Below, piece after piece: positions 536 to 59,099 of a DNA stretch of 64,000 nucleotides; position 1 is the first letter of the stretch, and every line of letters starts with the position of its first letter. The stretch comes from Cetorhinus maximus. Taxonomy: Eukaryota. Location of the stretch: the NCBI RefSeq assembly GCF_964194155.1, contig NC_135917.1:6386001-6450000 (forward strand), in the 5' to 3' direction. The notes beneath the pieces were generated by a model. That model ran no database searches. It had not been told where the DNA came from and saw only the letters and a program-made list of their open reading frames with translations. The translations under genes and the position numbers were made by a program.

Positions 536-538
536 TAT

Positions 539-915: not shown

Positions 916-924
916 TAAGTGTTA

Positions 925-1260: not shown

Positions 1261-1299
1261 ATTTTAGTTCCTTGAGGAAGGAACATGAATCGGAATGTA

Positions 1300-3927: not shown

Positions 3928-3939
3928 TAGTCCTACAAC

Positions 3940-14144: not shown

Positions 14145-14165
14145 AATAAACTTCTAATCAATAAA
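14145..14165 (+). terminator. Tandem polyadenylation signals (AATAAA x2), copy 1
   Basis: AATAAA at 14145-14150 and 14160-14165, about 200 bp after the stop, followed by T-rich sequence. Confidence 0.75.
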
Positions 14166-16073: not shown

Positions 16074-17509
16074 ACAATATTCTAAATTTTGTCTTCCCGC
16101 AGGTAATATAACTTGTATCCCTTTGTATTTCAGCACTCTTGTGAGAGAGGCCAACATTACATTCACTTTTCCAATCATTATTTCCACATGCCCACTTTTA
16201 GCTTTTAGTAATTGACAAGAGGTAGGAGACTCATAAACCTACATAATTCATAGTTCAAAGATGCATTTAGCACCCCAATGCAATCTTACTGGTATTACAC
16301 AGATTAGAAAGATCGAGCGCAGTCAAGATTGGGCGCTAACTGATCAGTGTGTTGAAACTAAATGAGACCCGATCTGTACAAAGCTGCAACACCCACAAGT
16401 CTCTCCTTTCACTTCATATGCGAGGCTACGATTCAGTGATCACTGTTTAAGCTGGACTGTGTTTTTGACATTCCTTGAAAACTAACAAGTATCTGTCCAT
16501 GGACGCTGCACTTGATTGGAGTGGAGAGGAGGAGGAGGAGAAGGAAAAAGAGCAGCAGCAGCAATGGCATCCTGTTGCAGGAATTGCAGGAAGGCTGCTG
16601 GAAGATGCAGCACCAGAGGGGCAGGCACGCAGCAGGCCTTACCCAGCTCCCACTGTGTACAGACAGAGACTCAGCTTCCTTCAGCTGTACAAGGAGCAGT
16701 GTTTCAGGATGCTCCCATTGTCAAGGCAGCTGGTCACGGACCTCTGCAGCCTCACCCTATGGGGAGATGGTGGGGCAGTGGTATGTCAGTGGGCTAGTGA
16801 TTCAGAAGCCCAGGTGAATATTCTGGGGCTGTGTGTTCAAATCCCACCATGGCAGCTGGTGGAATTTATGTTCAATTAAAATATCTGGAATATAAAACTA
16901 ATCTCAGTAATGATGACTGTGACAGCTATGATTGATTGTTGTAAAATCCCATCTTGTTCACTAATGCTAAGTAGGGAGGGAAATCTACCATCCTTGCCTT
17001 GTCTGGCTGATATGTGAGTTTGGAACCACAGAAATGTGATTGACTCTTAATTGCTGTCTGAAATGGTGTGGCTGGGCAGTTAGGGATGAGCAACAACTGC
17101 TGGCCTTATGAAAAAATAAATGTTATAAAGAGACAGGAAAATAAAAGAATTGTAACCAACAGGTTAAGGCTATTGAAAGAACAATCTGAACTGAATTCTG
17201 ACAAGTCCCCAGCACCTGATGGACTTCATCTGAGATTATTCAAAGAATTGGCAGCTGAGATAGTTGATGCATTGGTGGTAATTTTCCCCTGATTCTGGAA
17301 AGGTCCCATCAGATTGGAAAATAGCGAGTACAACTCCTCTGTTCAAGTAAGGACGAAGCACAGAAAGCAGGACACCACAGGCCAGTTAGTCGGACATCTG
17401 TCATGGGGAAAATACCAGAATTTATTATACGGGAGGTTATAGCAGGGCACTTAGAAAATTGTATTTTAGTTCCTTGAGGAAGGAACATGAATCGGAATGT
17501 AGGAAAAAC

Positions 17510-19571: not shown

Positions 19572-20139
19572 CCTTATCGTATCTTAATTAAGTAACTAAT
19601 TAATTATTTCCTTAATTAAATTTAGATTAAGTTTATGCATCCTCTCACCCCTCTTACTGTACTAATTTAAACCTTCGTAATCCAATAAACGCTATCAGTT
19701 CAGAATAAAATAAATAATGGACTCATTGCTTCCCTTCTGCAAGTGTTTCTAAATTAATTATGAGGTGGGTATTTTAGGCATATATAAAAGTTTCATTTTC
19801 TAAATTCCAGCTCTATACACAGTCCCTCACAGCACTTACTCACTAACAAATAGACTTGTGGCTTTTCTCTGAGGTCACTGTTTGAATTCTTTTTCCCTCA
19901 AACTCAGTGTTGGCTGGAAGCTGAAGCTGCATTCCTCCACAGGTCACAAGCAGGTCCACCTTTCTGCCGCTGCTTCTCCCCGCTCCGTCTGTGTAAGTGA
20001 GTTCTCAATGAAGTCTTTCTCTTTACAGCCTCACTCTCCTTGCTGAAGTCTCGCTCTTTACAGCACCACTCTCCTCACTGAAGTCTTACTCTTCATACCC
20101 CACTCTCCTCACTGAACTCTTGCTCTTTACACTCCTACA

Positions 20140-21320
20140 ACATGTATAAAGGGGAAACTGTAGATATGGTGCATAGGAATTTCCAAAAGGCATTTGATAC
20201 GGTGCTATGTCAAAGGTTACCACACAAAGTAAGAGCTGATGGTGCAGGTGGTAACATATTAGCATGGATAGAGGATTGGTTAGGTAACAGGAAGCAGAGA
20301 GCAGGCATAAATAGTTCATTTACAGGTTAGCAAGCTGTAATTAATGGAGTGCGTCAGGGATCAGTGCTGGGGCCTCAACTATTTACAACTTATAAAAATG
20401 ACTTGGATGAAGGGATTGAAAGTAGGGTGGCTAAATTTGCTGATGACACAAAGATGTCAGTAAGATGGAGAGTAAGTAGTGAGGAGGATGTAAGGAGCCT
20501 GCAAAGGGATATAGGTAGGTTATGTGAGTGGGCAAAGATTTGGCAGGTGGAGTATAATGTGGGAAAATGTGGAGCTGTTCACTTTGGTGGGAAGAATAGA
20601 AAAGCAGCATATGATTTAAATGGAGAGAGATTGCACAACTCTGAGGTACAGAGGGATCTGGGTGTCCTGCTACATGAATCACAAAATGTTAGCATGCAGG
20701 TACAGCAAGTGATTAAGAAGGTAAAGGGAATGTTGTTATTTATTGCAAGGGGAATGTCATAGGAAATTAGGGATGTTTTGCTGTAGTTGGGCAGGCTGTT
20801 GGTGACACCACATCTAGTTTTGGACTCCTTACTTAAGAAAGGATATAATTGTGTTAGAAACAGTTCCATGAACGTTCACTCGACTCATTCCTGGGATCAG
20901 GAGCCTATCTTATGAGGAAAGGTTGAACATGTTGAGACTGTATCCTTTGGAGGTTAGAAGAATGAGAGGTAATCTTACTGAAACATTTACGATCTTGAAG
21001 GGAGTTGACAGAGTGGTTATGAGAGAGACTGGAACTAGGGGCACAGTTTAAAAATGAGGAATCTCTCATTTAATGATGAGGAGGCGTTTTTTTCTCTCAG
21101 AGAGTTGTTAACCTGTGGAATTCTGTTCCCCAGAGAGCAGTGGAGACAGAATCAGTGAATATTTTTAAGACTGAGATGGATAGATTCTTGATTGACAAGG
21201 GAGTCAAAGGGCATAAGGAAGTGGAGTTAAGGCCACAATCAGATCAGCCATGAACTTATCAAATGGTGGAGCAGCCTCGAGTGGCTGAATGGCCTACTCC
21301 TGCTCCTAGGTCTGTTCGTA
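20140..21320 (+). mobile_element. CR1 LINE 3' portion (unit 2 copy)
   Basis: QGSVLGPQLF, KFADDTK and CR1 3'UTR. Confidence 0.9.
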
Positions 21321-21869
21321 TGCTCATATGAAGTGATAAGGAAACAGGGCCTGACAGTGAAGATGCCAGTGTGCAGTAGATGGTAGATGATTTGGCAGGA
21401 GGTTTACCTGGATGCTTGTGGAGCTGACTTCAGGAAGGACACTAGCGTTTGTTTGACAGACCTCCCATTGAAACCTGCTGAGAAATCAGTTCAGCATGAA
21501 GCATCGGCAGAAAATGTGCCAAGGACCCGTCTTTGGGCAGAGCATTCATGAATGAATTAAATTCCTACAATTCTACAAGCAACCAGTTTGCAGGGATTAG
21601 GAATATTGCTTCTCCCAATTATCCATGCACAATGTAGTCACTTTGGATTGATTAAAAATGGGCACTCTTTGCCATTTCAATCCTTTTTTGAAAAATATTT
21701 ATTCCCCAAATTTCGCAATCTTAAACTTCACTCTGGATGCAAAAATACAGACCAGGGACCCTGGTGAGTTTCCACATTCAAACAGCTGGTGGAGCCCTTG
21801 GGACACAGCAGGCAGAGACTGCAATGCTCCTGAACATTGGATTCTTTCAATGGGCTCTCACACTCTTCT

Positions 21870-22044
21870 AAAACAAAAACAGAATTACCTGGAAAAACTC
21901 AGCAGGTCTGGCAGCATCGGTGGAGAAGAAAAGAGTTGACGAGTCAACTTCTCCGCCGATGCTGCCAGACCTGCTGAGTTTTTCCAGGTAATTCTGTTTT
22001 TGTTTTGGATTTCCAGCATCCACAGTAGCTTTTTGTTTTTATCG
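21870..22044. mobile_element. Young foldback element (Penelope-like terminal-repeat derivative), unit-2-specific
   Basis: 59-bp inverted arms 21870-21928 / 21948-22006 with one mismatch; 12-bp TSD tca(c/t)actcttct at 21858-21869 and 22045-22056; empty site in the other three units. Confidence 0.8.
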
Positions 22045-22169
22045 TCATACTCTTCTGCTATCTATATTCTGCCAACCTGAAAGAGCGCAAAACCAGTTTA
22101 ATCCTCGAACGCTTTTTGTCCAGGGAACTTATTTACAGACAACAAACTTGAATTAATGTGTAAATATTT

Positions 22170-24625
22170 CTGTTTATTCGTTCACGAGATGTGGGCATCG
22201 CTGGCTGGGCCAGCATTTATTGCCCATCCTTAATTCCCCTTGAGGAGGTGGTGGTGAGCTGCCTTCTTGAACCACTGCAGTCCATGTGGTAAAGGTACAC
22301 CCACAGTGCTGTTAGGGAGGGAGTTCCAGGATTTTGACCCAGCGACATTGAGGAACGGTGATATATTTCCAAGTCAGGATGGTGAGTGACTTGGAGGGGT
22401 ACTTCCAGGTGGTGGTGTTCCCATCTATCTGCTCCCCTTGTCATTCTAGATGGTAGTGTTCGTGGGTTTGGAAGATGCTGTCTAAGGAGCCTTGATGAAC
22501 TCGGTGCATTGTTTCTTGTAGATGGTACACACTGCTGCTACTGTGCGTCGGTGGTGGAAGAAGTGAATGTTTGTAGATTTGGTGCCAATCAAGCGGGCTG
22601 CTTGCCCTGGAGGGTGTCAAGCTTCTTGACCGCTGTGGGAGCTGCATTCCTCCAGGGAAGTGGGGAGTGTTCCATGACACTCCTGACTTGTGCCTTGCAG
22701 GTGGACAGGCTTCGGGAAGTCAGGAGGTGAGTTACTCATCGGTGGATTCCTAGCCTCTGACCTGCTCTTGTAGCCACAGTATTTATATGGCTGGTCCAGT
22801 TCAGTTTCTGGTCAATGGTAACCAACAGGATGTGGATAGGGGGGGATTCTGTGATGGTAATATTATTGAAAGTCAAGGGGCGATGGTTAGATTGCCTCTT
22901 GTTGCACATGGACATTGCCTGGCTTTTGTGTGGCGCGAATGTTACTCACCACTTGTCAGCCCAAGCCTGGATATTGTCCAGGCCTTGCTGAATTTAGACA
23001 TGGACTGCTTCAGTATCTTAGGAGTCACGAATGGTAATGAACATTGTGCAGTCATCAGCAACCATCCCCACTTCTGACCTTATGATGGGAGGAAGGTCAT
23101 TGATGAAGCCGCTGAAGATGCTTGGACTGAGGACACTACCCTGAGGAACTCCTGCAGAGATGTTCTGGAGTTGAGATGACTGACATCCAACAACCACAAC
23201 CATCTTCTTTTGTGCTAGGTATGACTCCAACCAGTGGAGAGTTTTATCATTAACTCCAGTTTTGCTAGGGTTCCTTGATGCCACACTCAGTCAAATGCAG
23301 CCGTGATGTCAAGGGCAGTCAGGCTCACCTCAGCTCGGGAGTTCAGCTCATTTGTCCATGTTTGAACCAAGGCTGTAATGAGGTCAGGATCTGAGTGGCC
23401 CTGGCGGAACCCAAACTAGGCATCAGTGAGCAGGTTATTGCTAAGCAAGTGCCAGTCGATTGCACTGTTCATGAACCCCTTCCATTACTTGACTGCTGAT
23501 GGAGAGTAGACTGATGGGGCGGTAATTGACCGGGTTAGATTTGTCCTGCTTTTTGTGTATCGGACATACCTGGCCAACTTTCAACATAGCTGGGTAGATG
23601 CCAGTGTTGTAGCTGTACTGGTACAGTTTGGCTAGGGGCACAGCAAGTTCTGGAGCATAAGTCTTCAGTATTATTGTCGGAATATCATCAGTGCCCTTTG
23701 CCTTTCTGCCATTTCCTGATATCACATGGAGTGAATCGAATTGGCTGGAGACTGGCATCTGTGATGTTGGGGATCTCCGGAGGAGAATGAGATGGATCAT
23801 CCACTCGGCACTTCTGGCTGAAAATTAAAGCAAATGCTTCAGCCTTATCTTATGCACTGATGTTCTGGGATCCCCCATCATTCAGGATGGGGATATTTGT
23901 GGAGCCTCCTCCTCCAGTAAGTTGTTTCATTGTGCACCCCCATTCAAGACTGGATATGGCAGGACTGCAAAGCTTAGATCTGATACGTTGGTTATGGGAC
24001 CACTTAGCTCTGTCTATCACTTGCTGCTTATGCTGTTTGGCATGCAAGTAGTCCTGTGATAAAGCTTCACCAGGTTAACAGCTCATTATTAGGTATGTCT
24101 GGTGCTGCTCCTGGCATGCCCTGTATTCTTCAATAAATCAGGGTTGATCCCCTGACTTGATAGTAATGGTAGAGTGGGGGATATGCTAGGCCATGAGGTT
24201 ACAGATTGTGTTCAAATACAATTCTGCTGCTGCTGATGGCCCACAGCACCCCATGGATGCCCAGTCTTGAGTTGCTAGATCGGTTTGAAATCTACCCCAT
24301 TTAGCATGGTGGTAGTGCCACACAACACGATGGAGGGTATCCTCAATGTGAAGATGGGACTTTTCTCCACAACGACTGTGAGGTGGTCACTTCTACTGAT
24401 ACTGTCATGGACAGATGCATCTGCGGCAGCCAGGTTGGTGAGGATGAGGTTGAGAATGTTTTTCCTACTTGTTGGTTCCCTCACCACCTGCTGCAGGGCC
24501 AGTCTAGCAGCTATGTCCTTTAGGGCTCGGCCAGCTCAGACTGTAGTGGTGCTACCGAGAAACTCTTGGTGATGGACATTGAAGTCCCCCACCCAGAGTA
24601 CATTCTGCGCCTTTGCCACCTTCAG
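22170..24625 (-). mobile_element. CR1/Jockey-group LINE (unit 2 copy, longer)
   Basis: RT motifs NYRPISLLS, GVPQGSVL and VADD, plus endonuclease-region VREPTSRKNILNLILTN. Confidence 0.9.
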
Positions 24626-25333
24626 TATCCTGATGTTTCACAAGATCATAGTCAGACATCATTTGACATGGAGCCACACGAAGCTCAGTCAAAGAGGTAG
24701 CCTTTAAAGTATTCAGTCAATGATGGTGTAGATAAAGTGGGCAATGTTCAAGGGGCCAGAGATAATATGGGATTGGAAGATCACAGTGATGAAGGGAGCT
24801 GTAAACTCTCACCCCTCTCACACAGTCTCCGCTGTGTTGTTCTGCACTGAATTCTTCAAATGTCTTCGGCTTTAAAGCTGGTCAGGGCTCCAAAGCAAGT
24901 GAGCCACTTGTAAAAGGAGCAGGTAGAGGCACCCCAACCCTACCCCAACACTGGAAAGCACAGAATGATCCCTCACTGACAGACTCTAATACTGTGAGCT
25001 GCTCTCTCCATTGACATTCATCATATCCACTGCATTTTCTGGCCTCTCAGACAGCTCCTTCACAGGGACCGTTTCAAGGCTCTTGGAGTCTCCCAGCCCC
25101 ACATCCAGCTGATGATCTACAGGTTGGGGACGGAGCTGCTACCCAAAGCCACACATTGTTGCTGACTCCAGGTTGGCCAGCGGCAGGAACTGCAGGAACC
25201 AAGTGTTGCTGCTCCGCAAAGGGACAGGTTGGGACCCGTGGCAAAGGGCGGTGACTGGTTCCTCCCCTCTCTCGGTTTCTCCATTCCCATTGCTGTTTTC
25301 TGACACCCTGACCAAGCCTCGATCCACACAGCT

Positions 25334-25411: not shown

Positions 25412-28400
25412 ATGTCTCGTTCAAGTTTCTCCTACAGGTCCTCAAGCGGCAGCGGCAGCGTCAGAGGATTGAGCGGAACGGGAGGCAGATTATCCTCCGC
25501 ACGGATTGTGAGCAGCAGCAGCAGCGGCGGCGGGAGTGCCTACCCCTTCCAGGGGAGAGCACAGAGTTTGATCCTAGGTCAATCACGGAGAATATCGGCC
25601 CCGCTCCTCAGGAGCTCAGGTTATGGGGCGAGTTCGGGGTTTAGCAGCGGCTACTCGGGGGGGCTGATCCAGAAATCCACTAACATTGACCTCAACAGCC
25701 CTCTCCCTCAAAATGACACCACCCTGCAGAGTGTCCGCTTGGAGGAGAGCAGACAGATCAAGGGGCTCAACAACCAGTTTGTCAAATTCATTGACCAGGT
25801 AAAGTTCCGAGCTGTCCAGGCGGCCGTGTCTGGAAGCCAGTCTTCTGTGTCTTTTCTCAATGACTTGGTGTGTCTCCAGAAATGTCTCTTCTCACTTTGC
25901 AGCCCATTCCCTTCCGATGTAACTGTGTCTTCATTTTACACCGGCAGGTTCGTTACCTGGAGCAGGTCAATAAGAAACTGGAGGTCAAACTCAATCTCCT
26001 GAAAGAACAAGGAGATTACAAATCCAACATCGACAGCATGTTCCAGACTTACATCGACAACCTGAAAAGACAACTGGAAACACTGGGGCAGGAGAAACTC
26101 AGGTTCGAGGCCGATCTTGTCCAAATGCAAGGTCTGGTTGAAGACTTCAAGGGCAAGTAAGTGCGCTGCTGCTGCTGGATTTGGGCACGTTTTTCTCCCT
26201 ATCCCTTGTCGTGTGTGAACGAGACAAAGTCCCAGTTTGACATTAGGACCACTTTGACAGATTGATCAGGAGCTGGCAAAATGACAGCTGGAGAAATAAT
26301 CCTCAGGATGGTCATGTAGACTAAACTGCAGGAGTGAGGGGAAATGCCTGTACTCGTCCCCGTCACATTACTGGCTGCTGAGTCCGCTGTTTTCCCACTG
26401 GGATCCAGCTGGTTGCCGCATTTGGCATCAGTCGCCCTGCGTTGTGGAGATGGAAACATCAGTCAGCGCCCCCGGTCCCTGTAGGGTCACTTCTCCGGGA
26501 CGGGGAAGTGTCCGACTGTGGGCATCTGGGCTGCGGACGATAGGACGGAGCAAGTAGCTGGGTCTGGAGGAGCTGTTTGCTGAACGAATCTGTTGGAAAG
26601 GTGGAGGAGCCTCCCAGAGCTGTGAAGGTCAGGGAGAAGGATGAGTGAATTGGGGTAATGGGGTGGGGTGGGGAGTTAGTGGGTTGGGTAAACTCGAGCT
26701 GCAGGGAAAGGTGATTATCTGGAGAGATATTTGATAAATAGGCAATGTAATGGCAACTGGGCAGTAAGATTGATTTCCACAGGATTCTCAGTCAAATAAT
26801 CTGCTTCATTCCAGATACGAAGATGAAATTAACAAGCGCACGGAAATGGAGAATGAGTTTGTCCTGGTCAAGAAGGTAAGGTGACTCTATATATATATAT
26901 ATATCTGTGTGCAGGCCGACAGCAAACGGCTCCCTTGAGAGAGTTTTTCAAAGTACTTTGTCCCTCTCCTCTTTAGGACGTGGATGACTCCTACATGAGC
27001 AAAGTAGAGCTGGAAGCTAAACTGGAAAGCCTGACCGATGAAATCGACTTCCTCCGATCAATCTTTGAAGAGGTAACAATGTGACATGGCCCAGCAATTG
27101 TCCTCTGCTGTTGAATCTAATCCAGTGTAATCCAATGCAGCTAGAAAGTTTGCAATCACTTTTCAATCTTTTCTCCCGCCGATCTTTAGGAAATCCGTGA
27201 GCTGCAGGCACAGATTCAGAACACATCTGTCAGCGTGCAACTGGACAGTGGACCCAAACTGGACATCGAACAACTCATTGCTGAAGCCAAAATTCAGTAT
27301 GAAAACATGGCCAATCAGAGCCGTAAAGAAGCGGAGATTTGGAAACAGACTAAGGTTAAGATCCCAATCCTCATGTCCCACATGGATTGATAGATCTGCA
27401 GTCCGTGCTGAAGTGTGAAATCTTTTGCTAACTCCGTGTCAATGTTTCATTGTAGATGCAGGAACTGAGCATGTCGTCTGGACAATATGGGGATGAGCTC
27501 CGTATGACTAAGGATGAGATTAAACAGATGAATCAGCGAATCCGTGCACTGAATAATGATATTGAGAGTCTGAGAAACGAGGTAGGCAAAGAAGTGAAAG
27601 CAACATGATAATGGGAACAAGTGAATCATTGTTGTGAATGGCGCTTTGTCTTTCTGGGTGTGTCTCATTCTCTCCCCCATCCTACCCCATCCAAAAGAAC
27701 AATTGGACAAGAAGTGGTGGCGGGATCAGTGCAATCTTGCCTATTTCTGCCAGTCTTGCTCTCTCACTGATGGTAAGTTTCCGATACTGGTAAGGAAACA
27801 TTCCAATGTGAATCCCTTGCCAGCCTGCAGTGCACACGACACTGCTGTTCCCAATTCATTGTCATGATGCCACCAGCAAACACATCTTCCCTTCACCCCC
27901 TGCCTTTACCCAGGACTCGCTTTGAGCGCTGTTCTGATGCACAAAGTGTCGATGGAAGTGACCATGTTAATATTTGTGTTACTTAGCGTCTCAAACTGGA
28001 GGCTTTAATCAAAGAATCCGAGGAACGCGGCGAGCTGTCACTCAGAGGTGCAAAGGATAGGATTGAAGACCTGAAAAGTGCCCTGGCCAATGCACAACAA
28101 CAGCTGATGAAACAAGTCCAGGAATATGAGGCGCTGCTGCAAGTCAAGTTATATCTGGATGTTGAAATTTCCACCTACAAGTCTCTGCTGGAGGGAGAGG
28201 AGGAAAGGTAGGATATGGGGCAGTTACAAACTCCAGCCATCACACTGAGCACAGTGCATCATTTTATCTAGTGGCAGATTCCAATCTGTACTTGTGCTTT
28301 ATTGATATCTGTTGATGGAATGAAGTGCAGGAACTCAGAGTGCCAGGGTATTCTACAAGAACTTTGGTTTAAAAGCTGCTTGGTATCTAAGGAGACACAA

Positions 28401-30919
28401 ACATCACACTCACTCTCAGAATGAATCCCTGGCCTGTGAATCATTTCATCGAGATAAACCAGTAAAGTTCTCCTGATGTCTCACTGGGTGTGGGCATTGT
28501 GGAACTGAGCTATACCGAGCAGAAGCTGAACCAGATCGGTGGTTGGGGCGTCCAGTTGGGCTGTGGGTCACAAGCAATGGGGGGTTAAAGCAGCCCAGGA
28601 GCCTGTTCCTGAATGCTATGCAGTGTGTTCTGCTTGAAGGTCTGGATCTCTCTGCCCCATGACCAAATGGCCTGCTGCCATTTGCAGCCTGTGGCCATAC
28701 ATGAAGAATGGGCACTTTGGGCGAGGGTCTGGAGGGTGACTGTGCCCATTCGACGCTGAACCCCAGCAGATGCTGGTGTTCCTGGGAGAGGGAGAAAATT
28801 GGTCAACTCAAGAGAAATCTGACTGTAAATATGCTGCAAATACCTGCTGTAACATGATTGTGTTTCCATTATCAACAGGATGATAAGTGGGGTAAAAACC
28901 CTTAACATCCAGCAAGTACAGAACCAAGGTAAGAGAATTCCTAATTGCTAGTTTGAAGTAAGAATTCCGGGAGGAAGAGCTAGAAATCCAAAACAAAATG
29001 TGAAATTCTGTCATTTTCATTTGTTGAGAAGCGAATAGACAGGTTGTCATTTCAGCTCCCAGTGTGTGTGTTCTGAAGAAGGATCTATACGGTGCTTCCC
29101 AAACCTTAACCTCTCTTTGTTAAGTTCCCAGAGGCTGATAGAATGGTTTTGTATTTCCATATTTCAGATCTCACTTTAGTCATGCATAACTGTAAATAAT
29201 GTCTCTGTGTTTAACGATGAGATCAATAGGTGTTCAATGTAAGTAATTCTAATACTGCTGACTACACAACTTGCCCTTCTGACCCCCATGCTGGCTGATA
29301 ACGTTTAATGATTCCTTCTCCTCTAGTACTGTCCCCCTCCAGTTCAAGTAAACCACCATCACCCCCACCACATAAATCCCACATTTCACCCTTTGTTCCT
29401 GCAAACTGCTGCCCCATCTCCAACCTTGCTTTTCTCTTAAAGTCCTTGAATGTGTTGCTGCCTCCCAAAGCGGGGCCCATCTCTTCTGCAACTCTATGCT
29501 CCATCCTCCTTAATCTGCTTTCTGCCCCTCTAAAAGCACTGAAACAGTCCTTATCTAAGTCTCAAAAGACATCCAATGTGACTGTGACCACAGTAACATA
29601 TATCTCCTCATCCTTTTCTATCTGTCTGCAGCCATAGACATGTTTGACCACAGCAGTGTTCCTTCAGTACCTCTTTTGCTATGTCCACTGGTTGGGCCTG
29701 TGATTTAACATGGCGATGACCAAAGCCATTACCTTTGATCACAGCCACAAGCTACGTTCGCTATTCAAGAAATGCACCTCCTCCGTGGCCACTGCCTGAG
29801 GCTGAACCAGATATTCGCAACCTTGGTGTCGGACTGGACCCTGAGGTCTGCTTCTGAACCCATAGCCACTCCAACACCAAGACCACACACTTCCATCTCC
29901 GTAATATCATCATTCTCCACAACTGCCTCAGCTCATCGAATGCTGAAACCCACACTCATGCCTTTGTCACTTCCAGACTCAAATATTCCAATGTTCTCAT
30001 GGCCAGCAACCCTAACCCCACCCTCCATAAACTCCAGCTCATCCAAAGTTCCGCTGCCCATAGCCTAACCTGCACCAAGTCCTGTTCACCCTTTGTGCTC
30101 ACCGATCTACACTTGCTCCAAAGTTGGCAACGTCTTGAACTGAGCATTCTCATCCTTGTGCTCAAGTTCCCCCAGGGCATCATCCCTTTCCGTCTCTGTA
30201 ACTTCTTCCAGCTTTACAATGCCCCGCGATCTCTGTGCTCCTGCAGTACTGGCCTCTTCCACATCCCTGATTTACATCACCCCACCAGGGGCGGCCACAC
30301 TTTCAGTAACCAAGACTCAAAGTTTAGGAATTCCCTCCCTGAACCAGTCCTCCTCTCTACCTCTCTGCCTCCTCCTTTATGAGCTATATGTTTGAGCAAG
30401 CTTTTCATCGCCATCCTCATATGTGGCCTGGTGTCAAATATTTGTTTGAAAAAGTTCCTGGAAAGCACCTTGGGACATTTTACTGTGTTAAAGGTGCTAT
30501 AAAAATGCAAATTACTCTTCTTGTTGCACTTGTTCTTTGAATTCCAAATGTCCTTTAGGGAAGGAAATCTGCCATCCTTACCAGGACAGGCCCAAATGTT
30601 ACTCCAGACCCACAGCAATGTGGTTGACTCTGAACTGCCTTCAGCAATGGCCAAGCAAGCCACTCAGTTCAAGGGCAATTAGGGATGGGCCGTGATGCCC
30701 ACACCCCACGAAAGAATAAAGAAAAGAAAGTGTAAGACCCAGATTATAAGAGGGTGTTTTTTTTCCTCTTTTACAGGTAATTTTCAGCAGTTCCGTGACA
30801 TGAGTAGCGGATTAGAAAGTTCTCTCGGTTTAGGAGGCTCTGGTAGTGGCAGAAGTAGTCAAACGGTGACTGTGAAATCAGTGGAGCAAAGCCGTGGTGG
30901 ATATCTTTCTTCATATTGA
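25412..30919 (+). CDS. Type II cytoskeletal keratin (keratin-8-like), copy 2; 9 exons, 485 aa, tail exon 9A
   Basis: join(25412-25798,25948-26156,26815-26875,26977-27072,27190-27354,27456-27581,27987-28207,28879-28928,30777-30919). GT-AG introns, open frame, near-identical to copy 1. Confidence 0.95.
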
Positions 30920-37431: not shown

Positions 37432-38907
37432 ATGTCTCGTTCAAGTTTCTCCTACAGGTCCTCAAGCGGCAGCGGCAGCGTCAGAGGATTGAGCGGAACG
37501 GGAGGCAGATTATCCTCCGCACGGATTGTGAGCAGCAGCAGCAGCGGCGGCGGGAGTGCCTACCCCTTCCAGGGGAGAGCACAGAGTTTGATCCTAGGTC
37601 AATCACGGAGAATATCGGCCCCGCTCCTCAGGAGCTCAGGTTATGGGGCGAGTTCGGGGTTTAGCAGCGGCTACTCGGGGGGGCTGATCCAGAAATCCAC
37701 TAACATTGACCTCAACAGCCCTCTCCCTCAAAATGACACCACCCTGCAGAGTGTCCGCTTGGAGGAGAGCAGACAGATCAAGGGGCTCAACAACCAGTTT
37801 GTCAAATTCATTGACCAGGTAAAGTTCCGAGCTGTCCAGGCGGCCGTGTCTGGAAGCCAGTCTTCTGTGTCTTTTCTCAATGACTTGGTGTGTCTCCAGA
37901 AATGTCTCTTCTCACTTTGCAGCCCATTCCCTTCCGATGTAACTGTGTCTTCATTTTACACCGGCAGGTTCGTTACCTGGAGCAGGTCAATAAGAAACTG
38001 GAGGTCAAACTCAATCTCCTGAAAGAACAAGGAGATTACAAATCCAACATCGACAGCATGTTCCAGACTTACATCGACAACCTGAAAAGACAACTGGAAA
38101 CACTGGGGCAGGAGAAACTCAGGTTCGAGGCCGATCTTGTCCAAATGCAAGGTCTGGTTGAAGACTTCAAGGGCAAGTAAGTGCGCTGCTGCTGCTGGAT
38201 TTGGGCACGTTTTTCTCCCTATCCCTTGTCGTGTGTGAACGAGACAAAGTCCCAGTTTGACATTAGGACCACTTTGACAGATTGATCAGGAGCTGGCAAA
38301 ATGACAGCTGGAGAAATAATCCTCAGGATGGTCATGTAGACTAAACTGCAGGAGTGAGGGGAAATGCCTGTACTCGTCCCCGTCACATTACTGGCTGCTG
38401 AGTCCGCTGTTTTCCCACTGGGATCCAGCTGGTTGCCGCATTTGGCATCAGTCGCCCTGCGTTGTGGAGATGGAAACATCAGTCAGCGCCCCCGGTCCCT
38501 GTAGGGTCACTTCTCCGGGACGGGGAAGTGTCCGACTGTGGGCATCTGGGCTGCGGACGATAGGACGGAGCAAGTATCTGGGTCTGGAGGAGCTGTTTGC
38601 TGAACGAATCTGTTGGAAAGGTGGAGGAGCCTCCCAGAGCTGTGAAGGTCAGGGAGAGGGATGAGTGAATTGGGGTAATGGGGTGGGGTGGGGAGTTAGT
38701 GGGTTGGGTAAACTCGGGCTGCAGGGAAAGGTGATTATCTGGAGAGATATTTGATAAATAGGCAATGTAATGGCAACTGGACAGTAAGATTGATTTCCAC
38801 AGGATTCTCAGTCAAATAATCTGCTTCATTCCAGATACGAAGATGAAATTAACAAGCGCACGGAAATGGAGAATGAGTTTGTCCTGGTCAAGAAGGTGAG
38901 GTGACTC

Positions 38908-38938
<31 letters not shown>

Positions 38939-41900
38939 TATATATATCTGTGTGCAGGCCGACAGCAAACGGCTCCCTTGAGAGAGTTTTTCAAAGTACT
39001 TTGTCCCTCTCCTCTTTAGGACGTGGATGACTCCTACATGAGCAAAGTAGAGCTGGAAGCTAAACTGGAAAGCCTGACCGATGAAATCGACTTCCTCCGA
39101 TCAATCTTTGAAGAGGTAACAATGTGACATGGCCCAGCAATTGTCCTCTGCTGTTGAATCTAATCCAGTGTAATCCAATGCAGCTAGAAAGTTTGCAATC
39201 ACTTTTCAATCTTTTCTCCCGCCGATCTTTAGGAAATCCGTGAGCTGCAGGCACAGATTCAGAACACATCTGTCAGCGTGCAACTGGACAGTGGACCCAA
39301 ACTGGACATCGAACAACTCATTGCTGAAGCCAAAATTCAGTATGAAAACATGGCCAATCAGAGCCGTAAAGAAGCGGAGATTTGGAAACAGACTAAGGTT
39401 AAGATCCCAATCCTCATGTCTCACATGGATTGATAGATCTGCAGTCCGTGCTGAAGTGTGAAATCTTTTGCTAACTCCGTGTCAATGTTTCATTGTAGAT
39501 GCAGGAACTGAGCATGTCATCTGGACAATATGGGGATGAGCTCCGTATGACTAAGGATGAGATTAAACAGATGAATCAGCGAATCCGTGCACTGAATAAT
39601 GATATTGAGAGTCTGAGAAACGAGGTAGGCAAAGAAGTGAAAGCAACATGATAATGGGAACAAGTGAATCATTGTTGTGAATGGCGCTTTGTCTTTCTGG
39701 GTGTGTCTCATTCTCTCCCCCATCCTACCCCATCCAAAAGAACAATTGGACAAGAAGTGGTGGCGGGATCAGTGCAATCTTGCCTATTTCTGCCAGTCTT
39801 GCTCTCTCACTGATGGTAAGTTTCCGATACTGGTAAAGAAACATTCCAATGTGAATCCCTTGCCAGCCTGCAGTGCACACGACACTGCTGTTCCCAATTC
39901 ATTGTCATGATGCCACCAGCAAACACATCTTCCCTTCACCCCCTGCCTTTACCCAGGACTCGCTTTGAGCGCTGTTCTGATGCACAAAGTGTCGATGGAA
40001 GTGACCATGTTAATATTTGTGTTACTTAGCGTCTCAAACTGGAGGCTTTAATCAAAGAAGCCGAGGAACGCGGCGAGCTGTCACTCAGAGGTGCAAAGGA
40101 TAGGATTGAAGACCTGAAAAGTGCCCTGGCCAATGCACAACAACAGCTGATGAAACAAGTCCAGGAATATGAGGCGCTGCTGCAAGTCAAGTTATATCTG
40201 GATGTTGAAATTTCCACCTACAAGTCTCTGCTGGAGGGAGAGGAGGAAAGGTAGGATATGGGGCAGTTACAAACTCCAGCCATCACACTGAGCACAGTCC
40301 ATCATTTTCTCTAGTGGCAGATTCCAATCTGTACTTGTGCTTTATTGACAACTGTTGATGGAATGAAGTGCAGGAACTCAGAGTGCCAGGGTATTCAACA
40401 AGAACTTTGGTTTAAAAGCTGCTTGGTATCTAAGGAGACACAAACATCACACTCACTCTCAGAATGAATCCCTGGCCTGTGAATCATTCTTCCTTTCATA
40501 GAGATAAACCAGTAAAGTTCTCCTGATGTCTCACTGGGTGTGGGCATTGTGCAACTGAGCTATACCGAGCAGAAGCTGAACCAGATCAGTGGTTGGGGCG
40601 TTCAGTTGGGCTGTGGGTCCCAAGCAATGGGGGGTAAAATCAGCCGGGGAGCCTGTTCCTGATGGCTATACAGTGTGTTCTGCTTGAAGGTCTGGATCTC
40701 TCTGCCCCATGACCAAATGACCTGCTGGCATTTGCAGACTCTGGCCATACATGAAGAATGGGCACTTTGGGTGAGGGTCTGGAGGGTGACTGTGCCCAAT
40801 CGATGCTGAACCGCAGCAGATGCTGGTGTTACTGGGAGAGGTAGAAAATTGGTCAACTCAAGAGAAATCTGACTGTAAATATGCTGCAAATACCTGCTGT
40901 AACATGATTGTGTTTCCATTATCAACAGGATGATAAGTGGGGTAAAAACCCTTAACATCCAGCAAGTACAGAACCAAGGTAAGAGAATTCCTAATTGCTA
41001 GTTTGAAGTAAGAATTCCGGGAGGAAGAGCTAGAATTCCAAAACAAAAATGTGAAATTCTGTAAATTTCATTTGTTGAGAAGCGAATAGACAGGTTGTCA
41101 TTTCAGCTCCCAGTGTGTGTGTTCTGAAGAAGGATCTATACAGTGCTTCCCAAACCTTAACCTCTCTTTGTTCAGTTCCCAGAGGCTGAAAGAATGGTTT
41201 TGCATTTCCATATTTCAGATCTCACTTTAGTCATGCATAAGTGTAAATAATGTGTCTGTGTTTAACGATGAGATCAATAGGTGTTCAATGTAAGTACTTC
41301 TAATACTGCTGACTACACAACTTGCCCTCCTTACCCCCATGCTGGCTGATAATGTTTAATGATTCCTTCTCCTCTAGTACTGTCCCCCTCCAGTTCAAAC
41401 AAACCACCATCACCCCCCACCACATAAATCCCACATTTCACCCTTTGATCTTGGAAACTGCTGACCGATCTCCAACCTTGCTTTTCTCTTAAAGTCCTTG
41501 AATGTGTTGTTGCCTCCCAAAGCAGTGTCCATCTCTTCTGCAACTCTATGCTCGATCCTCCTCAATCAGCTTTCTGCCCCTCTAAAAGCACTGAAACATC
41601 CATATCTGAGTCACAAAAGACATCCAATGTGACTGTGACCACATATAGCTCCTCATCCTTTTCTATCTGTCTGCAGCCATAGACATGTTTGACCACAGTA
41701 GTGTTCCTTCATTACCTCGTTTGCTATGTCCACTGGTTGGGCATGTGATTTAACATGGTGATGACCAAAGCCATTACCTTTGATCACAGCCACAAGCTAC
41801 ATTCGCTATGCAAGAAATGCACCTCCTCCGTGGCCACTGCCTGAGGCTGAAACAGATATTTGCAACCTTGGTGTCAGACTGGACACTGAGATCTGCTTCT

Positions 41901-42958
41901 GAACCCATAGCCACTTCAACACCAAGACCACCCACTTCCATCTCCGTAATATCATCATTCTCCACAACTGCCTCAGCTCATCGAATGCTGAAGACCACAC
42001 TCAGGCCTTTGTCACTTCCAGACTCAAATATTCCAATGTCCTCATGGCCAGCAACCCAAACCCCACCCTCCTTAAACTTCAACTCATCCAAAGTTCCGCT
42101 GCCCATATCCTAACCTGCACCAAGTCCTGTTCACCCTTTGTGCTCACCGATCTACACTTGCTCCCAACCTGGCAACGCCTTGAACTGATCATTCTCATCG
42201 TTGTGCTCAAGTTCCTCCAGGGCATCATCCCTTTCCGTCTCTGTAACTTCTTCCAGCTCTACAATGCCCTACGATATCTGTGCTCCTGCAGTACTGGCCT
42301 CTTCCACATCCCTGATTTACATCACCCCACCAGGGGCGGCCACACTTTCAGTAACCAAGACTCAAAGTTCAGGAATTCCCTCCCTGAACCACTCCTCCTC
42401 TCTACCTCTCTGCCTCCTCCTTTAAGAGCTATATGTTTGAGCAAGCTTTTCATCGCCATCCTCATATGTGGCCTGGTGTCAAATATTTGTTTGAAAAAGT
42501 TCCTGGAAAGCACCTTGGGACATTTTACTGTGTTAAAGGTGCTATAAAAATGCAAATTACTCTTCTTGTTGCACTTTGAATTACTAATGTCCTTTAGGGA
42601 AGGAAATCTGCCATCCTTACCAGGACAGGACAAAATGTTACTCCAGACCCACAGCAATGTGGTTGACTCTGAACTGCCTTCAGCAATGGCCAAGCAAGCC
42701 ACTCAGTTCAAGGGCAATTAGGGATGGGCAGTGATGCCCACACCCCATGAAAGAATAAAGAAAAGAAAGTGTAAGACCCAGATTATAAGAGGGTGTTTTT
42801 TTTCCTCTTTTACAGGTAATTTTCAGCAGTTCCGTGACATGAGTAGTGGATTAGAAAGTTCTCTCGGTTTAGGAGGCTCTGGTGGTGGCAGAAGTAGTCA
42901 AACGGTGATTGTGAAATCAGTGGAGCAAAGCCATGGTGGATATCTTTCTTCATATTGA
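37432..42958 (+). CDS. Type II cytoskeletal keratin (keratin-8-like), copy 3; 9 exons, 485 aa, tail exon 9A
   Basis: join(37432-37818,37968-38176,38835-38895,39020-39115,39233-39397,39499-39624,40030-40250,40929-40978,42816-42958). GT-AG introns, open frame. Confidence 0.95.
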
Positions 42959-52432: not shown

Positions 52433-53037
52433 TGTCCCGATGTTTCACAAGACCATAGTCAGGTATCATTTGACATGGAGGCACACTAAGGAGAGTTCAG
52501 GCTAGAGGAATAGAAGCTCAGTCAAAGAGGTAGCCTTTAAAGAATTCAGTCAAGGATGGGGTGGATAAAGTGGGCAACGTCCAAGTGGCCAGAGATAATA
52601 TGGGATTGGAAGATCACAGTGATGAAGGGAGCTGTAAACTCTCACCCCTCTCACACAGTCTCCCCTGTGTTATTCTGCACTGATAGACTCTAATACTGTG
52701 AGCTGCTCTCTCCATTGACATTCATCATATCCACTGCAGTTTCTGGCCTCTCAGACAGCTCCTTCACAGGGACCTTTTCAAGGCTCTTGGAGTCTCCCAG
52801 CCCCACATCCAGCTGATGATCTACAGGTTGGGGACGGAGCTGCTACCCAAAGCCACACATTGTTGCTGACTCCAGGTTGGCCAGCGGCAGGAACTGCAGG
52901 AACCAGGTGTTGCTGCTCTGCAAAGGGACAGGTTGGGACCCGTGGCAAAGGGCGGTGACTGGTTCCTCCCCTCTCTCGGTTTCTCCATTCCCATTGCTGT
53001 TATCTGACACCCTGACCAAGCCTCGATCCACACAGCT

Positions 53038-53044
53038 CATAAAA
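53038..53044 (+). promoter_or_regulatory. TATA-like box of keratin copy 4
   Basis: CATAAAA at the same spacing from ATG 53116. Confidence 0.7.
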
Positions 53045-53115
53045 GCAGCTGGGAGCGCCCTCAGTCCCAGCAGCCGTTCAGTTTCGCACTCCGGGTTCTC
53101 TCCAACAACCTCAAC

Positions 53116-54588
53116 ATGTCTCGTTCAAGTTTCTCCTACAGGTCCTCAAGCGGCAGCGGCAGCGTCAGAGGATTGAGCGGAACGGGAGGCAGATTATCCT
53201 CCGCACGGATTGTGAGCAGCAGCAGCAGCGGCGGCGGGAGTGCCTACCCCTTCCAGGGGAGAGCACAGAGTTTGATCCTAGGTCAATCACGGAGAATATC
53301 GGCCCCGCTCCTCAGGAGCTCAGGTTATGGGGCGAGTTCGGGGTTTAGCAGCGGCTACTCGGGGGGGCTGATCCAGAAATCCACTAACATTGACCTCAAC
53401 AGCCCTCTCCCTCAAAATGACACCACCCTGCAGAGTGTCCGCTTGGAGGAGAGCAGACAGATCAAGGGGCTCAACAACCAGTTTGTCAAATTCATTGACC
53501 AGGTAAAGTTCCGAGCTGTCCAGGCGGCCGTGTCTGGAAGCCAGTCTTCTGTGTCTTTTCTCAATGACTTGGTGTGTCTCCAGAAATGTCTCTTCTCACT
53601 TTGCAGCCCATTCCCTTCCGATGTAACTGTGTCTTCATTTTACACCGGCAGGTTCGTTACCTGGAGCAGGTCAATAAGAAACTGGAGGTCAAACTCAATC
53701 TCCTGAAAGAACAAGGAGATTACAAATCCAACATCGACAGCATGTTCCAGACTTACATCGACAACCTGAAAAGACAACTGGAAACACTGGGGCAGGAGAA
53801 ACTCAGGTTCGAGGCCGATCTTGTCCAAATGCAAGGTCTGGTTGAAGACTTCAAGGGCAAGTAAGTGCGCTGCTGCTGCTGGATTTGGGCACGTTTTTCT
53901 CCCTATCCCTTGTCGTGTGTGAACGAGACAAAGTCCCAGTTTGACATTAGGACCACTTTGACAGATTGATCAGGAGCTGGCAAAATGACAGCTGGAGAAA
54001 TAATCCTCAGGATGGTCATGTAGACTAAACTGCAGGAGTGAGGGGAAATGCCTGTACTCGTCCCCGTCACATTACTGGCTGCTGAGTCCGCTGTTTTCCC
54101 ACTGGGATCCAGCTGGTTGCCGCATTTGGCATCAGTCGCCCTGCGTTGTGGAGATGGAAACATCAGTCAGCGCCCCCGGTCCCTGTAGGGTCACTTCTCC
54201 GGGACGGGGAAGTGTCCGACTGTGGGCATCTGGGCTGCGGACGATAGGACGGAGCAAGTATCTGGGTCTGGAGGAGCTGTTTGCTGAACGAATCTGTTGG
54301 AAAGGTGGAGGAGCCTCCCAGAGCTGTGAAGGTCAGGGAGAGGGATGAGTGAATTGGGGTAATGGGGTGGGGTGGGGAGTTAGTGGGTTGGGTAAACTCG
54401 GGCTGCAGGGAAAGGTGATTATCTGGAGAGATATTTGATAAATAGGCAATGTAATGGCAACTGGACAGTAAGATTGATTTCCACAGGATTCTCAGTCAAA
54501 TAATCTGCTTCATTCCAGATACGAAGATGAAATTAACAAGCGCACGGAAATGGAGAATGAGTTTGTCCTGGTCAAGAAGGTGAGGTGA

Positions 54589-54624
<36 letters not shown>

Positions 54625-57295
54625 GTGTGCAGGCCGACAGCAAACGGCTCCCTTGAGAGAGTTTTTCAAAGTACTTTGTCCCTCTCCTCTTTAGGACGTG
54701 GATGACTCCTACATGAGCAAAGTAGAGCTGGAAGCTAAACTGGAAAGCCTGACCGATGAAATCGACTTCCTCCGATCAATCTTTGAAGAGGTAACAATGT
54801 GACATGGCCCAGCAATTGTCCTCTGCTGTTGAATCTAATCCAGTGTAATCCAATGCAGCTAGAAAGTTTGCAATCACTTTTCAATCTTTTCTCCCGCCGA
54901 TCTTTAGGAAATCCGTGAGCTGCAGGCACAGATTCAGAACACATCTGTCAGCGTGCAACTGGACAGTGGACCCAAACTGGACATCGAACAACTCATTGCT
55001 GAAGCCAAAATTCAGTATGAAAACATGGCCAATCAGAGCCGTAAAGAAGCGGAGATTTGGAAACAGACTAAGGTTAAGATCCCAATCCTCATGTCTCACA
55101 TGGATTGATAGATCTGCAGTCCGTGCTGAAGTGTGAAATCTTTTGCTAACTCCGTGTCAATGTTTCATTGTAGATGCAGGAACTGAGCATGTCGTCTGGA
55201 CAATATGGGGATGAGCTCCGTATGACTAAGGATGAGATTAAACAGATGAATCAGCGAATCCGTGCACTGAATAATGATATTGAGAGTCTGAGAAACGAGG
55301 TAGGCAAAGAAGTGAAAGCAACATGATAATGGGAACAAGTGAATCATTGTTGTGAATGGCGCTTTGTCTTTCTGGGTGTGTCTCATTCTCTCCCCCATCC
55401 TACCCCATCCAAAAGAACAATTGGACAAGAAGTGGTGGCGGGATCAGTGCAATCTTGCCTATTTCTGCCAGTCTTGCTCTCTCACTGATGGTAAGTTTCC
55501 GATACTGGTAAGGAAACATTCCAATGTGAATCCCTTGCCAGCCTGCAGTGCACACGACACTGCTGTTCCCAATTCATTGTCATGATGCCACCAGCAAACA
55601 CATCTTCCCTTCACCCCCTGCCTTTACCCAGGACTCGCTTTGAGCGCTGTTCTGATGCACAAAGTGTCGATGGAAGTGACCATGTTAATATTTGTGTTAC
55701 TTAGCGTCTCAAACTGGAGGCTTTAATCAAAGAATCCGAGGAACGCGGCGAGCTGTCACTCAGAGGTGCAAAGGATAGGATTGAAGACCTGAAAAGTGCC
55801 CTGGCCAATGCACAACAACAGCTGATGAAACAAGTCCAGGAATATGAGGCGCTGCTGCAAGTCAAGTTATATCTGGATGTTGAAATTTCCACCTACAAGT
55901 CTCTGCTGGAGGGAGAGGAGGAAAGGTAGGATATGGGGCAGTTACAAACTCCAGCCATCACACTGAGCACAGTGCATCATTTTATCTAGTGGCAGAATCC
56001 AATCTGTACTTGTGCTTTATTGATATCTGTTAATGGAATGAAGTGCAGGAACTCAGAGTGCCAGGGTATTCTACAAGAACTTTGGTTTAAAAGCTGCTCG
56101 GTATCTAAGGAGACACAAACATCACACTGACTCTCAGAATGAATCCCTGGCCTGTGAATCATTCTTCCTTTCATAGAGATAAACCAGTAAAGTTCTCCTG
56201 ATGTCTCACTGGGTGTGGGCATTGTGGAACTGAGCTATACCGAGCAGAAGCTGAACCAGATCGGTGGTTGGGGCGTCCAGTTGGGCTGTGGGTCACAAGC
56301 AATGGGGGGTTAAAGCAGCCCAGGAGCCTGTTCCTGAATGCTATGCAGTGTGTTCTGCTTGAAGGTCTGGATCTCTCTGCCCCATGACCAAATGGCCTGC
56401 TGCCATTTGCAGCCTGTGGCCATACATGAAGAATGGGCACTTTGGGCGAGGGTCTGGAGGGTGACTGTGCCCATTCGATGCTGAACCCCAGCAGATGCTG
56501 GTGTTACTGGGAGAGGGAGAAATTTGGTCAACTCAAGAGAAATCTGACTGTAAATATGCTGCAAATACCTGCTGTAACATGATTGTGTTTCCATTATCAA
56601 CAGGATGATAAGTGGGGTAAAAACCCTTAACATCCAGCATGTACAGAACCAAGGTAAGAGAATTCCTAATTCCTAGTTTGAAGTAAGAATTCCGGGAGGA
56701 AGAGCTTGAATTCCAAAACAAAAATGTGAAATTCTGTCATTTTCATTTGTTGAGAAGCGAATAGACAGGTTGTCATTTCAGCTCCCAGTGTGTGTGTTCT
56801 GAAGAAGGATCTATACAGTGCTTCCCAAACCTTAACCTCTCTTTGTTCAGTTCCCAGAGGCTGACAGAATGGCTTTGTATTTCCATAATTCAGCTCTCAC
56901 TTTAGTCATGCATAACTGTAAATAATGTCTCTGTGTTTAATTATGAGATCAATAGGTGCTGCAGATTGGGTCAGCCGAAATTCCTTGTAATGCTGCTGCT
57001 TTTTGGCTGCTCCTGTGTCGATGAAAGGGGATTTTTCGAAACTGATCCTCCATGGAGGACCTTTTTTGATGACCACACCTGTCACACATTTGAAGTTTGT
57101 ATTTTTTATTTGCTTTCAGGTTATGTTTTGGGGTCTAATGCCATCAGCTATGGAATGCCTTCAAGTTTCGAAACCTCTCATTTCAGTTCAGGAATCTCGA
57201 CAACTGGCTCTAAAAGCACAAAACGTCTGCTTGTGAGGGAAACTGAGCAGGTAGATGGAATTACAGTGTCTTCAACTACAACACCATTGATCTAA
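53116..57295 (+). CDS. Type II cytoskeletal keratin (keratin-8-like), copy 4; 9 exons, 496 aa, different tail exon 9B
   Basis: join(53116-53502,53652-53860,54519-54579,54695-54790,54908-55072,55174-55299,55705-55925,56604-56653,57120-57295). Exons 1-8 match the other copies. The last exon follows a strong acceptor (ttttttatttgctttcag) and is phase-compatible with exon 8. Confidence 0.9.
57120..57295 (+). CDS. Unique terminal coding exon 9B of keratin copy 4 ([58 protein letters not shown])
   Basis: Polypyrimidine tract plus CAG at 57117-57119. A phase-1 join gives G+GT=Gly. Ser/Gly-rich sequence ending in a motif like the K8 tail (VVVKKIETRDGKLVS). AATAAA downstream at 57924. Confidence 0.85.
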
Positions 57296-57923
57296 TGGAT
57301 AGAAAGCCTTGTCCACTCTCTGGTTCTGGCCTCCAGACAAATCAATTTTCATCCTACATCTTCGCCTGAAAGTTCAGTTCTAGATTTGCATATTTGGGGA
57401 GCCTTCTTTCTGTACTAACACTGGTGAATCAGCAAATCCACAGTCGTTTAAGTCTTAAGGGATTTGTTGGGTAAGAACTTGTCCCAGTCTGTCGACATTC
57501 ATAAAAATTACTCATCAGTCTGCCTCATACATGCAGCATGGTTGTCACATTAATTAATTCTCCTTGTGACTGCCATGTGACCCCAGTAGCATTGCATCCG
57601 ACTATTTGTTCGTGACTTCACCATTTGGCTGGGAGTATAAATTTGACATCACCAAAAATCTGGTGGGCAGACATATTTTGGGATTAATTAGTGTGAATAC
57701 TCAGTATCTCCTTGACGTTCTGTGACTTTGATCTGGAAAGATAGATATCTAGCTCCTTAAAGGTTATTTTGGGCTTACAGGAAAACTACCTAAGATACTT
57801 TACTTTAATTGTTGGGCTCTTTAGAATAGGAAATGATCCAATGTTTTCTGTATGGATCTGTTTCACATTCTATATCTCCTTGTACCAGAGAATTATCTTT
57901 TCATCACATTCTGTGAAATATTG

Positions 57924-57929
57924 AATAAA
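57924..57929 (+). terminator. Polyadenylation signal of keratin copy 4 (exon 9B 3'UTR)
   Basis: AATAAA about 630 bp after stop 57295, followed by a T/GT-rich downstream element (ttgtttttttctctgtt). Confidence 0.6.
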
Positions 57930-59099
57930 TATGTCTTTTGCAATTCCAAATTGTTTTTTTCTCTGTTCCGCATATCTATCTCTCTGTTTGATTCTCCTGC
58001 ACTGATTTTTTCCCCCATCATGCTTTAGATGTTACATATTTGTACTTCAGAATTTCTGAGCCACACTTGTTCTGAATCTATTCATAAAAAAGCTACAGCT
58101 GAACAGGCAAGACATATACCAAGCACAAATATATAAAAGGACATACAGAATGAGTGAGAATCAGAATACCACGCTCAGTAAAAAAAAATGAATGATTTGG
58201 GTTGCCAGTTTAGCTTAGCAGTGTCATTAAAATGAGATCTCTCATCCCAGAAAGAGATCAAATAAAGTTATGTACAGACTCTTTTTTGTTTCAATGTTTT
58301 CATGCATACTCTTCAGTATGTTAGAAACTGAAGTGTAGACTTCCCCCAAGTCCTCCAGTGAACAAGATCAAAGCCATACTGCAGTCACCCAGATGCACCA
58401 GTGTCATTGCCAGATTACAATTCTCAGAAAAAACTACCTCACTTTCTCTCCTCCAAACAAGTCAAAGAAGGTGAGGCATTAACATGAATTCCAGCTTGCC
58501 CTGATTATGATAGCAACCATATTTTTAAAATTCTGGCACTTGATTGTGCTTCAAGAAATCCCAGCCAGAACACCCCTATCTAGGTATTTATTTACACATG
58601 GATACATTTTCTGGTGACTCACATTTGTCTTATAATATTCCACTTCATTAATTAGCTCAAAGCGGCAATTCAGAGCTCAGATGGCATGAAACAGATAAAT
58701 CAAAAGTAAGGAATGAGGCTCTAAAATTATTACAAAAAGCAAATAAACCAGATATTGTATTCTCAAACTTAATTTCAGACAAGTTGCATGCATAAAGTAT
58801 GATAATCTACTCAATTGTTACACCATAGTTAGATAGCAACTGTGAATAGTAAAACCAGTGGTTTCTTTTTGTTAACATAAAAAGAACAAAGATTCTTTAC
58901 TATTTTCTCAGTGGAATTGTTCAAGAGTATTTCAGTTTGTTTTTCCAAATTATCTCAACCTAGCTGGAAGGTGCATTTGAATTATTGCGTTCCTCACTAT
59001 TGGCTGCTCCCTCCATCAATCACATTCACCATCACACTTAGTTCCAGCCACAGGCAACAACACCTATCCACTGGTAGGATTTAATGACTCTTATGATAG

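Follow-up and report, generated by a model that had tools for sequence, protein, structure and literature searches.

A 64,000-nt stretch of the basking shark (Cetorhinus maximus) genome (G000:C40:6386001-6450000; C40 is NC_135917.1), hereafter the window, carries four near-identical type II keratin genes that end in two different tails. We found that the first three of these genes end in one terminal exon, 9A, and the last in another, 9B, and that both kinds of gene, here called A and B, are present in most of the other cartilaginous fishes that we compared. The array very probably represents an ancient pair of type II keratin paralogues of sharks and rays whose promoter-to-intron-8 block has been homogenised repeatedly, lineage by lineage, through gene conversion and unequal crossover, and re-copying of the shared part by conversion since before sharks and rays split is the most likely history. 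This reading is carried by the pattern of identity among gene bodies (exons 1-8), the grouping of tails by type, mosaic differences between copies, and a block with sharp edges and relic homology beyond them.

The keratin array and its shared block

Self-BLAST revealed that a 12-17 kb unit is repeated four times in the window. Each unit carries an intact nine-exon type II keratin gene (ATG at 8430, 25412, 37432 and 53116), all four reading frames are open, and every intron has GT-AG ends. Copies 1-3 are A genes of 485 amino acids (aa) on the + strand (8430..13950, 25412..30919 and 37432..42958), and their exon 9A (13808-13950, 30777-30919 and 42816-42958) encodes a 47-aa tail and has two AATAAA signals. 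Copy 4, gene B (53116..57295, + strand, 496 aa; exons 53116-53502, 53652-53860, 54519-54579, 54695-54790, 54908-55072, 55174-55299, 55705-55925, 56604-56653 and 57120-57295), is the last gene of the array; P0009 is a 496-aa database protein bearing the same tail. Exon 9B (57120..57950, + strand; coding 57120-57295) supplies a 58-aa tail and a 3' untranslated region (UTR) with AATAAA at 57924; it was found once in a genome search. Both terminal exons are phase 1. Exons 1-8 of the four copies differ at 1-4 positions per 1,315 nt, and the homogenised block of copy 4 (52678..56958, + strand) reaches from ~440 nt of promoter through exons 1-8 to 305 nt into intron 8, and is 98-99% identical to the other copies (self-BLAST and alignments). 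An initial annotation, made from the letters of this DNA, had described just such near-identity through exon 8 and ~300 bp of intron 8, with the same distribution, lengths and phase of the two tails, and this description holds.

The block lies within much older homology. The same annotation had seen no nucleotide similarity between 9A and 9B; however, a faint DNA homology is present. The ends of their 3' UTRs (13957..14168 on the + strand for 9A, homologous to 57738-57947 for 9B) align at 123 of 206 nt (z 6.6, 0/1000 dinucleotide shuffles), whereas the same test against the UTR of a neighbouring K8-like gene gave z values of 1.0 and 0.3, and the coding parts align at 73 of 132 nt (z 3.8, 2/1000 shuffles). 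At the other side, the upstream flank of the inner copies (7642..7955, + strand) is collinear with, and 64% identical to, the unique 5' flank of the array's first gene on the unplaced contig C547 (C547:156829-157146; 185/289, z 7.7, 0/1000). Relic homology was not found past the poly(A) sites (z -0.3), and none was convincing between the 3' ends of intron 8 (z 1.9). Repeated conversion of an ancient duplicate would be expected to leave just such a near-identical block, with far older homology at either side.

In intron 8 of the A copies, old dispersed repeats (12282..13750, + strand) begin ~14 nt beyond the point where the shared block stops. These repeats gave 40 scored matches in the genome, 33 of which lie outside the array at 70-76% identity; their first part is a putative broken long interspersed nuclear element (LINE) reverse transcriptase. 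The end of gene B intron 8 is single-copy in the genome. Rather than a recent duplication breakpoint, the intron-8 junction is the edge of the homogenised block, beside an old dispersed repeat.

Differences among the seven copies recovered from the genome are mosaic. In a four-gamete test, 835 of 2,145 informative site pairs were incompatible, and the incompatible fraction climbed from 0.12 for sites <50 nt apart to 0.49 for sites >2 kb apart; neighbouring sites were more compatible than in permutations (1/2000). The nearest partner of copy 4 shifts along the gene, from copy 3 in introns 2-4 to copy 2 in intron 7, and B is no more distant from the A copies than these are from each other. Divergence averages ~0 over exon 1 to exon 2, rises to 1-2.5% in introns 2-6 and to 3-4% in introns 7-8, and reaches 5-7% in the spacers. 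Exon 1, intron 1 and exon 2 together (~745 nt; 53116-53860 in the window and equivalents) show one substitution and one 3-nt indel over the seven copies. A conversion hotspot near the promoter, with divergence increasing toward intron 8, is possible.

The array extends beyond the window: in all, the genome search recovered at least seven bodies (four on C40 and three on C547), at least seven 9A exons and at least one 9B. Shortly before the window comes an orphan 9A exon (C40:6384201-6384343). No gene body precedes it; instead, a 10-bp satellite extends for at least 6.2 kb and continues into a scaffold gap (C40:6376120-6376319). The candidate filler of this gap is C547 (209,633 nt), whose 3' end is 3.2 kb of the same satellite, beginning 281 nt before the next ATG would be expected. 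C547 probably fills this gap, and one array unit would have lost its body to satellite. The start of C547 showed no overlap with the 140 kb of C40 preceding the gap, so the upstream join is unproven. No other keratin exon was found in the 150 kb of C40 upstream of the window. The satellite (C547:206463-209633 plus C40:6376320-6382571, at least 9.4 kb in total) also breaks the assembly. In one unit it stands in for the body, with limits 281 nt before the ATG and ~215 nt into intron 8; the frame of the orphan 9A is open, and the same 9-mer occurs once at either outer satellite edge.

The first gene of the array, at C547:157790, has the same body joined to tail 9A. It differs from copy 4 at 6 of 1,312 nt and from the remaining copies at 2-7 of 1,312, and beyond about -475 its 5' flank is unique, being single-copy in the genome search. 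Upstream of it lies a K8-like keratin gene, which has a different body and its own tail. The initial annotation had predicted that the array would open with a different-bodied gene spliced to 9A, which is not what these two genes show. The order would be type I K18-like, K8-like (head-to-head with it), A, A, A, headless A, A, A, A, B and an opposite-strand type II keratin, and the A genes would number at least six, besides a headless A relic and a single B.

The proteins carry an intermediate-filament rod domain, as a Pfam Filament match at residues 111-422 scores ~305 bits against a cut-off of 40. Standard sizes for type II keratin rod exons are 61, 96, 165, 126 and 221 nt, and the exons here measure 387, 209, 61, 96, 165, 126, 221 and 50 nt, followed by the terminal exon. 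The named relatives among the best 120 of 3,498 whole-protein matches are mostly type II keratins; source names of database relatives include 'keratin, type II cytoskeletal 8-like', and a catshark relative is named 'epidermal keratin type II'. The array genes resemble keratin 8 in being type II, in having nine exons, in the K8-like end motif of tail B and in adjoining a K18/K8 pair. However, the head-to-head place with krt18, an arrangement reported in section 3.2 of an earlier study (bioRxiv 10.1101/2020.05.06.063123), is taken by the separate K8-like type II gene (C547:119019-142373), of which the array genes are paralogues.

Bodies and tails in other cartilaginous fishes

We compared the annotated (predicted) proteins of 16 species, gathered from the whole-protein search (the best 120 of 3,498 matches) and two cluster look-ups. 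The 90% cluster of the A protein holds seven proteins of Cetorhinus maximus and five of Carcharodon carcharias (four A and one B). A whole protein was needed as query: the 9B peptide alone gave no match (85 candidates) and the 9A peptide alone gave one cluster. Left out of the counts were a 630-aa model of Stegostoma (P0145), 10 of the 12 chimaera entries (partial or redundant), P0034 (partial), P0018 and P0032 (unnamed), and P0029, whose short tail is nearer to B (59 vs 30). We did not use accession numbers to deduce gene order, as their order mismatches position in this genome.

Both tail types occurred in 14 of the 16 species, with one B protein in each of the 14 and 1-6 distinct A proteins. 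Within species, A and B bodies were 98.8-100% identical in all 40 comparisons (14 species), whereas their tails were 20-48% identical. Between species, body identity was 50-79% in 88 of the 91 pairs; the three closest pairs reached 87-95%. In a quick tree of bodies, A and B were sisters in 14/14 species, also within Mobula and between both lamniforms, and a B clade was rejected (p-AU 0.0001, chimaera excluded). In the tails, likewise placed in a quick tree, a B clade was not rejected (p-AU 0.56, chimaera excluded), and 2 label changes sufficed against 9.6 after shuffling (0/500). Furthermore, leave-one-lineage-out hidden Markov models (HMMs) assigned 29 of 30 tails to the expected type. Partial conversion is expected to leave greater likeness within than between species, mosaic tracts, and abrupt edges with old homology outside them, and all of these are found (the first at the protein level in 14/14 species); the unconverted tails group orthologously, weakly for orectolobiform A tails and without resolution for the chimaera.

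These results agree with the initial annotation in that the two tails are anciently diverged paralogues, grouping by type across sharks and rays. It had also proposed to see which body each tail joins in outgroups; there the body is natively joined to both tails, near-identically within each of the 14 species, which goes against new chimeras. Substitutions or indels separate 37 of the 40 A bodies from the B body of their own species, and most are therefore separate loci rather than alternative last exons.

Carpet-shark A tails (P0020, P0141-P0144, P0152-P0160) are barely similar to the remaining A tails, possibly through remodelling or replacement. In the chimaera (P0163, P0167) and the horn shark (P0132, P0133), the first part of one tail resembles that of the other (47-48% identity), which would fit a conversion edge that once extended into exon 9 in these lineages.

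Both tail forms are spliced in relatives. Four of 20 listed runs were compared, all contigs came from three other organisms, and the RNA status of the runs was guessed. The relatives' contigs skip six introns at GT-AG ends, and exon 8 is joined to 9A in X2 (two contigs) and X4 (one contig). X1 has loose ends with exon-8 letters at both the 9A and 9B acceptors (one contig for 9B), an X2 contig has a poly(A) loose end at 57950, and in a contig of X3, also a relative, the short intron 8 of gene B continues into 9B. The junctions of exon 8 with either tail, which the initial annotation had proposed to look for, are thus both seen in relatives. A same-species run guessed to be RNA shared next to no matching words and has no bearing on expression.

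Mechanism and rival explanations

We propose that an ancient tandem duplication, extending from flank to poly(A) site, produced A followed by B. Non-allelic recombination would then keep the bodies alike, halting at an upstream indel and at the repeat insertion in intron 8. An unequal crossover between bodies would duplicate only the segment between them, namely tail A and the spacer, and because only tail A lies between bodies, A would amplify while B stays single (A×n, B×1). The reciprocal product, a lone B-tailed gene, was seen in none of the 14 species with B, and it is thus likely that selection keeps both tails. Type II keratins heterodimerise with a type I keratin. An identical promoter, head and rod would permit co-expression of A and B and pairing with the same type I partner, with tail and 3' UTR differing. 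Homogenisation may itself be selected or may be a by-product of tandem position. A stronger version, which we regard as rather doubtful, is that exon-bounded conversion has kept the two-tail system since sharks and rays, or possibly all cartilaginous fishes, shared an ancestor, and that the system is selected as such: a shared, fast-evolving head and rod would be needed for co-assembly, and A copy number would act as a dial on filament properties by setting the A:B tail ratio in skin filaments.

Several points weigh against an ancient, repeatedly converted pair. Mustelus and Rhincodon (two of the 16 species) have A proteins only. The tail that the HMMs missed is the chimaera B tail, and four orectolobiform A tails were assigned by just 1-3 bits. 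In three of the 40 comparisons the A and B bodies are letter-identical, and these could be alternative last exons of one gene. Data from the other species consist only of predicted proteins; their collection through 90%-identity clusters favours near-identical bodies, the A and B labels were first assigned by eye from the end motif, and the tails are short and of low complexity. In the basking shark itself, the position of C547 in the gap is deduced, the body and exon-9 counts are lower bounds, as further copies could hide in the satellite, and recurrent mutation can likewise yield incompatible sites.

The initial annotation had proposed a recent duplication, with both breakpoints in intron 8, that put the tail of a separate gene, A, onto body B and so created new chimeric keratins. 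In its favour, B-type upstream DNA does accompany an A tail in the inner copies, and the orphan 9A exon does lie directly upstream of the window. However, that exon follows satellite rather than a different gene body, the first array gene shares its body with the others, and body-plus-A occurs in all 16 species examined, with both combinations in 14. In a new chimeric gene, body and tail would be joined in a way seen neither at the parent locus nor in outgroups, and no such combination was found. We consider this origin highly improbable. Its ancestral order of A then B stands, as does the formation of the inner copies by unequal exchange between A and B, but the breakpoints in intron 8 and the new chimeras do not: the inner copies are hybrid solely in their B-type upstream DNA, and their proteins are ordinary A.

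It is also unlikely, if a little less so, that each lineage recently and independently duplicated the body onto pre-existing tail exons without long-term conversion. Such duplications would also yield identity within species and would suit the differing A copy number among species; yet the same event would be required in 14/14 species, sister species included, and the mosaic tracts and the 60-64% relic homology flanking a 98-99% block would be left unexplained. Recurrent replacement of one body by the other, to which this scenario amounts, is in any case the repeated homogenisation that we favour. We see very little room for A and B being alternative last exons of a single gene elsewhere, split into separate genes only in this lineage: the three letter-identical comparisons would fit, but the other 37 show separate loci, and 'isoform' appears in none of the source names. 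Least plausible of all is that the array is an assembly artefact or C547 an alternative haplotype. A scaffold gap and satellite do interrupt the array, but the spacers have private indels and diverge by 5-7%, four A proteins and one B are present in the white shark, and the K8-like gene of C547 is single-copy in the genome search, which argues that this contig is not an alternative haplotype.

Related systems and the surroundings of the array

In Siglec pairs the 5' part is converted and the tails differ. The human red/green opsin genes form a tandem paralogue pair in which unequal crossover alters the copy number of one class and makes hybrids, with end genes that have unique outer flanks; that pair is young (primate) and its differences are spread over exons, whereas the shark array amplifies the proximal class and its two classes differ by one terminal exon. 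The paired Siglecs SIGLEC5/14 and SIGLEC11/16 are described as evolving in concert through repeated partial gene conversion, which kept neighbouring paralogues partly alike in separate lineages (PMC6288428). They are primate immune receptors with a pathogen-driven rationale, whereas the shark/ray pair encodes a structural protein and has one partner amplified.

Among keratins, the mammalian groups K6A/B/C, K81/83/86/87 and K31/33A/33B/34 likewise cluster by species, which is interpreted as concerted evolution in a study that confirmed conversion in just three of 19 groups (PMC5540548). That study concerns mammals only, an exon-bounded block or orthologous tails are not reported in its sections on these groups, and the shark genes need not be their orthologues. 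In the KRTAP1 repeats, the coding region is described as evolving in concert between normally radiating flanks, with abrupt edges ascribed to gene conversion (bioRxiv 10.1101/282418); there the entire coding region is homogenised, whereas the edge in the shark lies inside intron 8, so two protein tails persist. A survey of keratin clusters in ancient fishes includes one cartilaginous fish, lacks the words 'conversion' and 'concerted' in its main text, and mentions retaining one of any sequences >99% similar (10.1101/2020.05.06.063123). A term search of a keratin family review returned neither 'conversion' nor 'shark' (PMC8733776). Our literature searches, whose scope excluded supplements and subscription papers (two catshark keratin papers among them), found no description of this shark/ray pair. 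The mechanism is known from the Siglec pairs and the mammalian K6 and K81 groups; the long-lived keratin case is without report in the literature searched.

Conversion between duplicates is usually expected to fade with divergence, and sharks and rays split roughly 250-300 million years ago. Here, bodies are 20-50% apart between lineages yet ~99% identical within species, and the two tails predate that split. The pair offers a many-species test bed for the duration of conversion, for what stops its tracts and for whether selection maintains it. Keratin trees based on the rod will take the ancient pair for many recent lineage-specific duplications, and de-duplication at 99% identity can conceal it. 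The array is an extension of an old arrangement, not evidence for a new route of gene making.

The repeat-rich spacers of the 12-17 kb unit (14176..24973, also 1-7991, 31145-36993 and 43184-52677; no strand assigned) are mutually 93-95% identical. One dispersed repeat is present in several copies in both orientations, 84-88% alike (window 49989-52400, 59214-59827 and 61186-62126), and the spacers carry insertions and deletions specific to individual units. Another type II keratin gene (C40:6459673-6469148, minus strand; L011-L012) lies tail to tail with the array and is ~45% identical to it in the rod exons. Finally, an intermediate-filament gene (C40:6127827-6132366; L043), whose exons we take to encode a type III protein of peripherin/desmin-like kind, lies ~245 kb before the gap.

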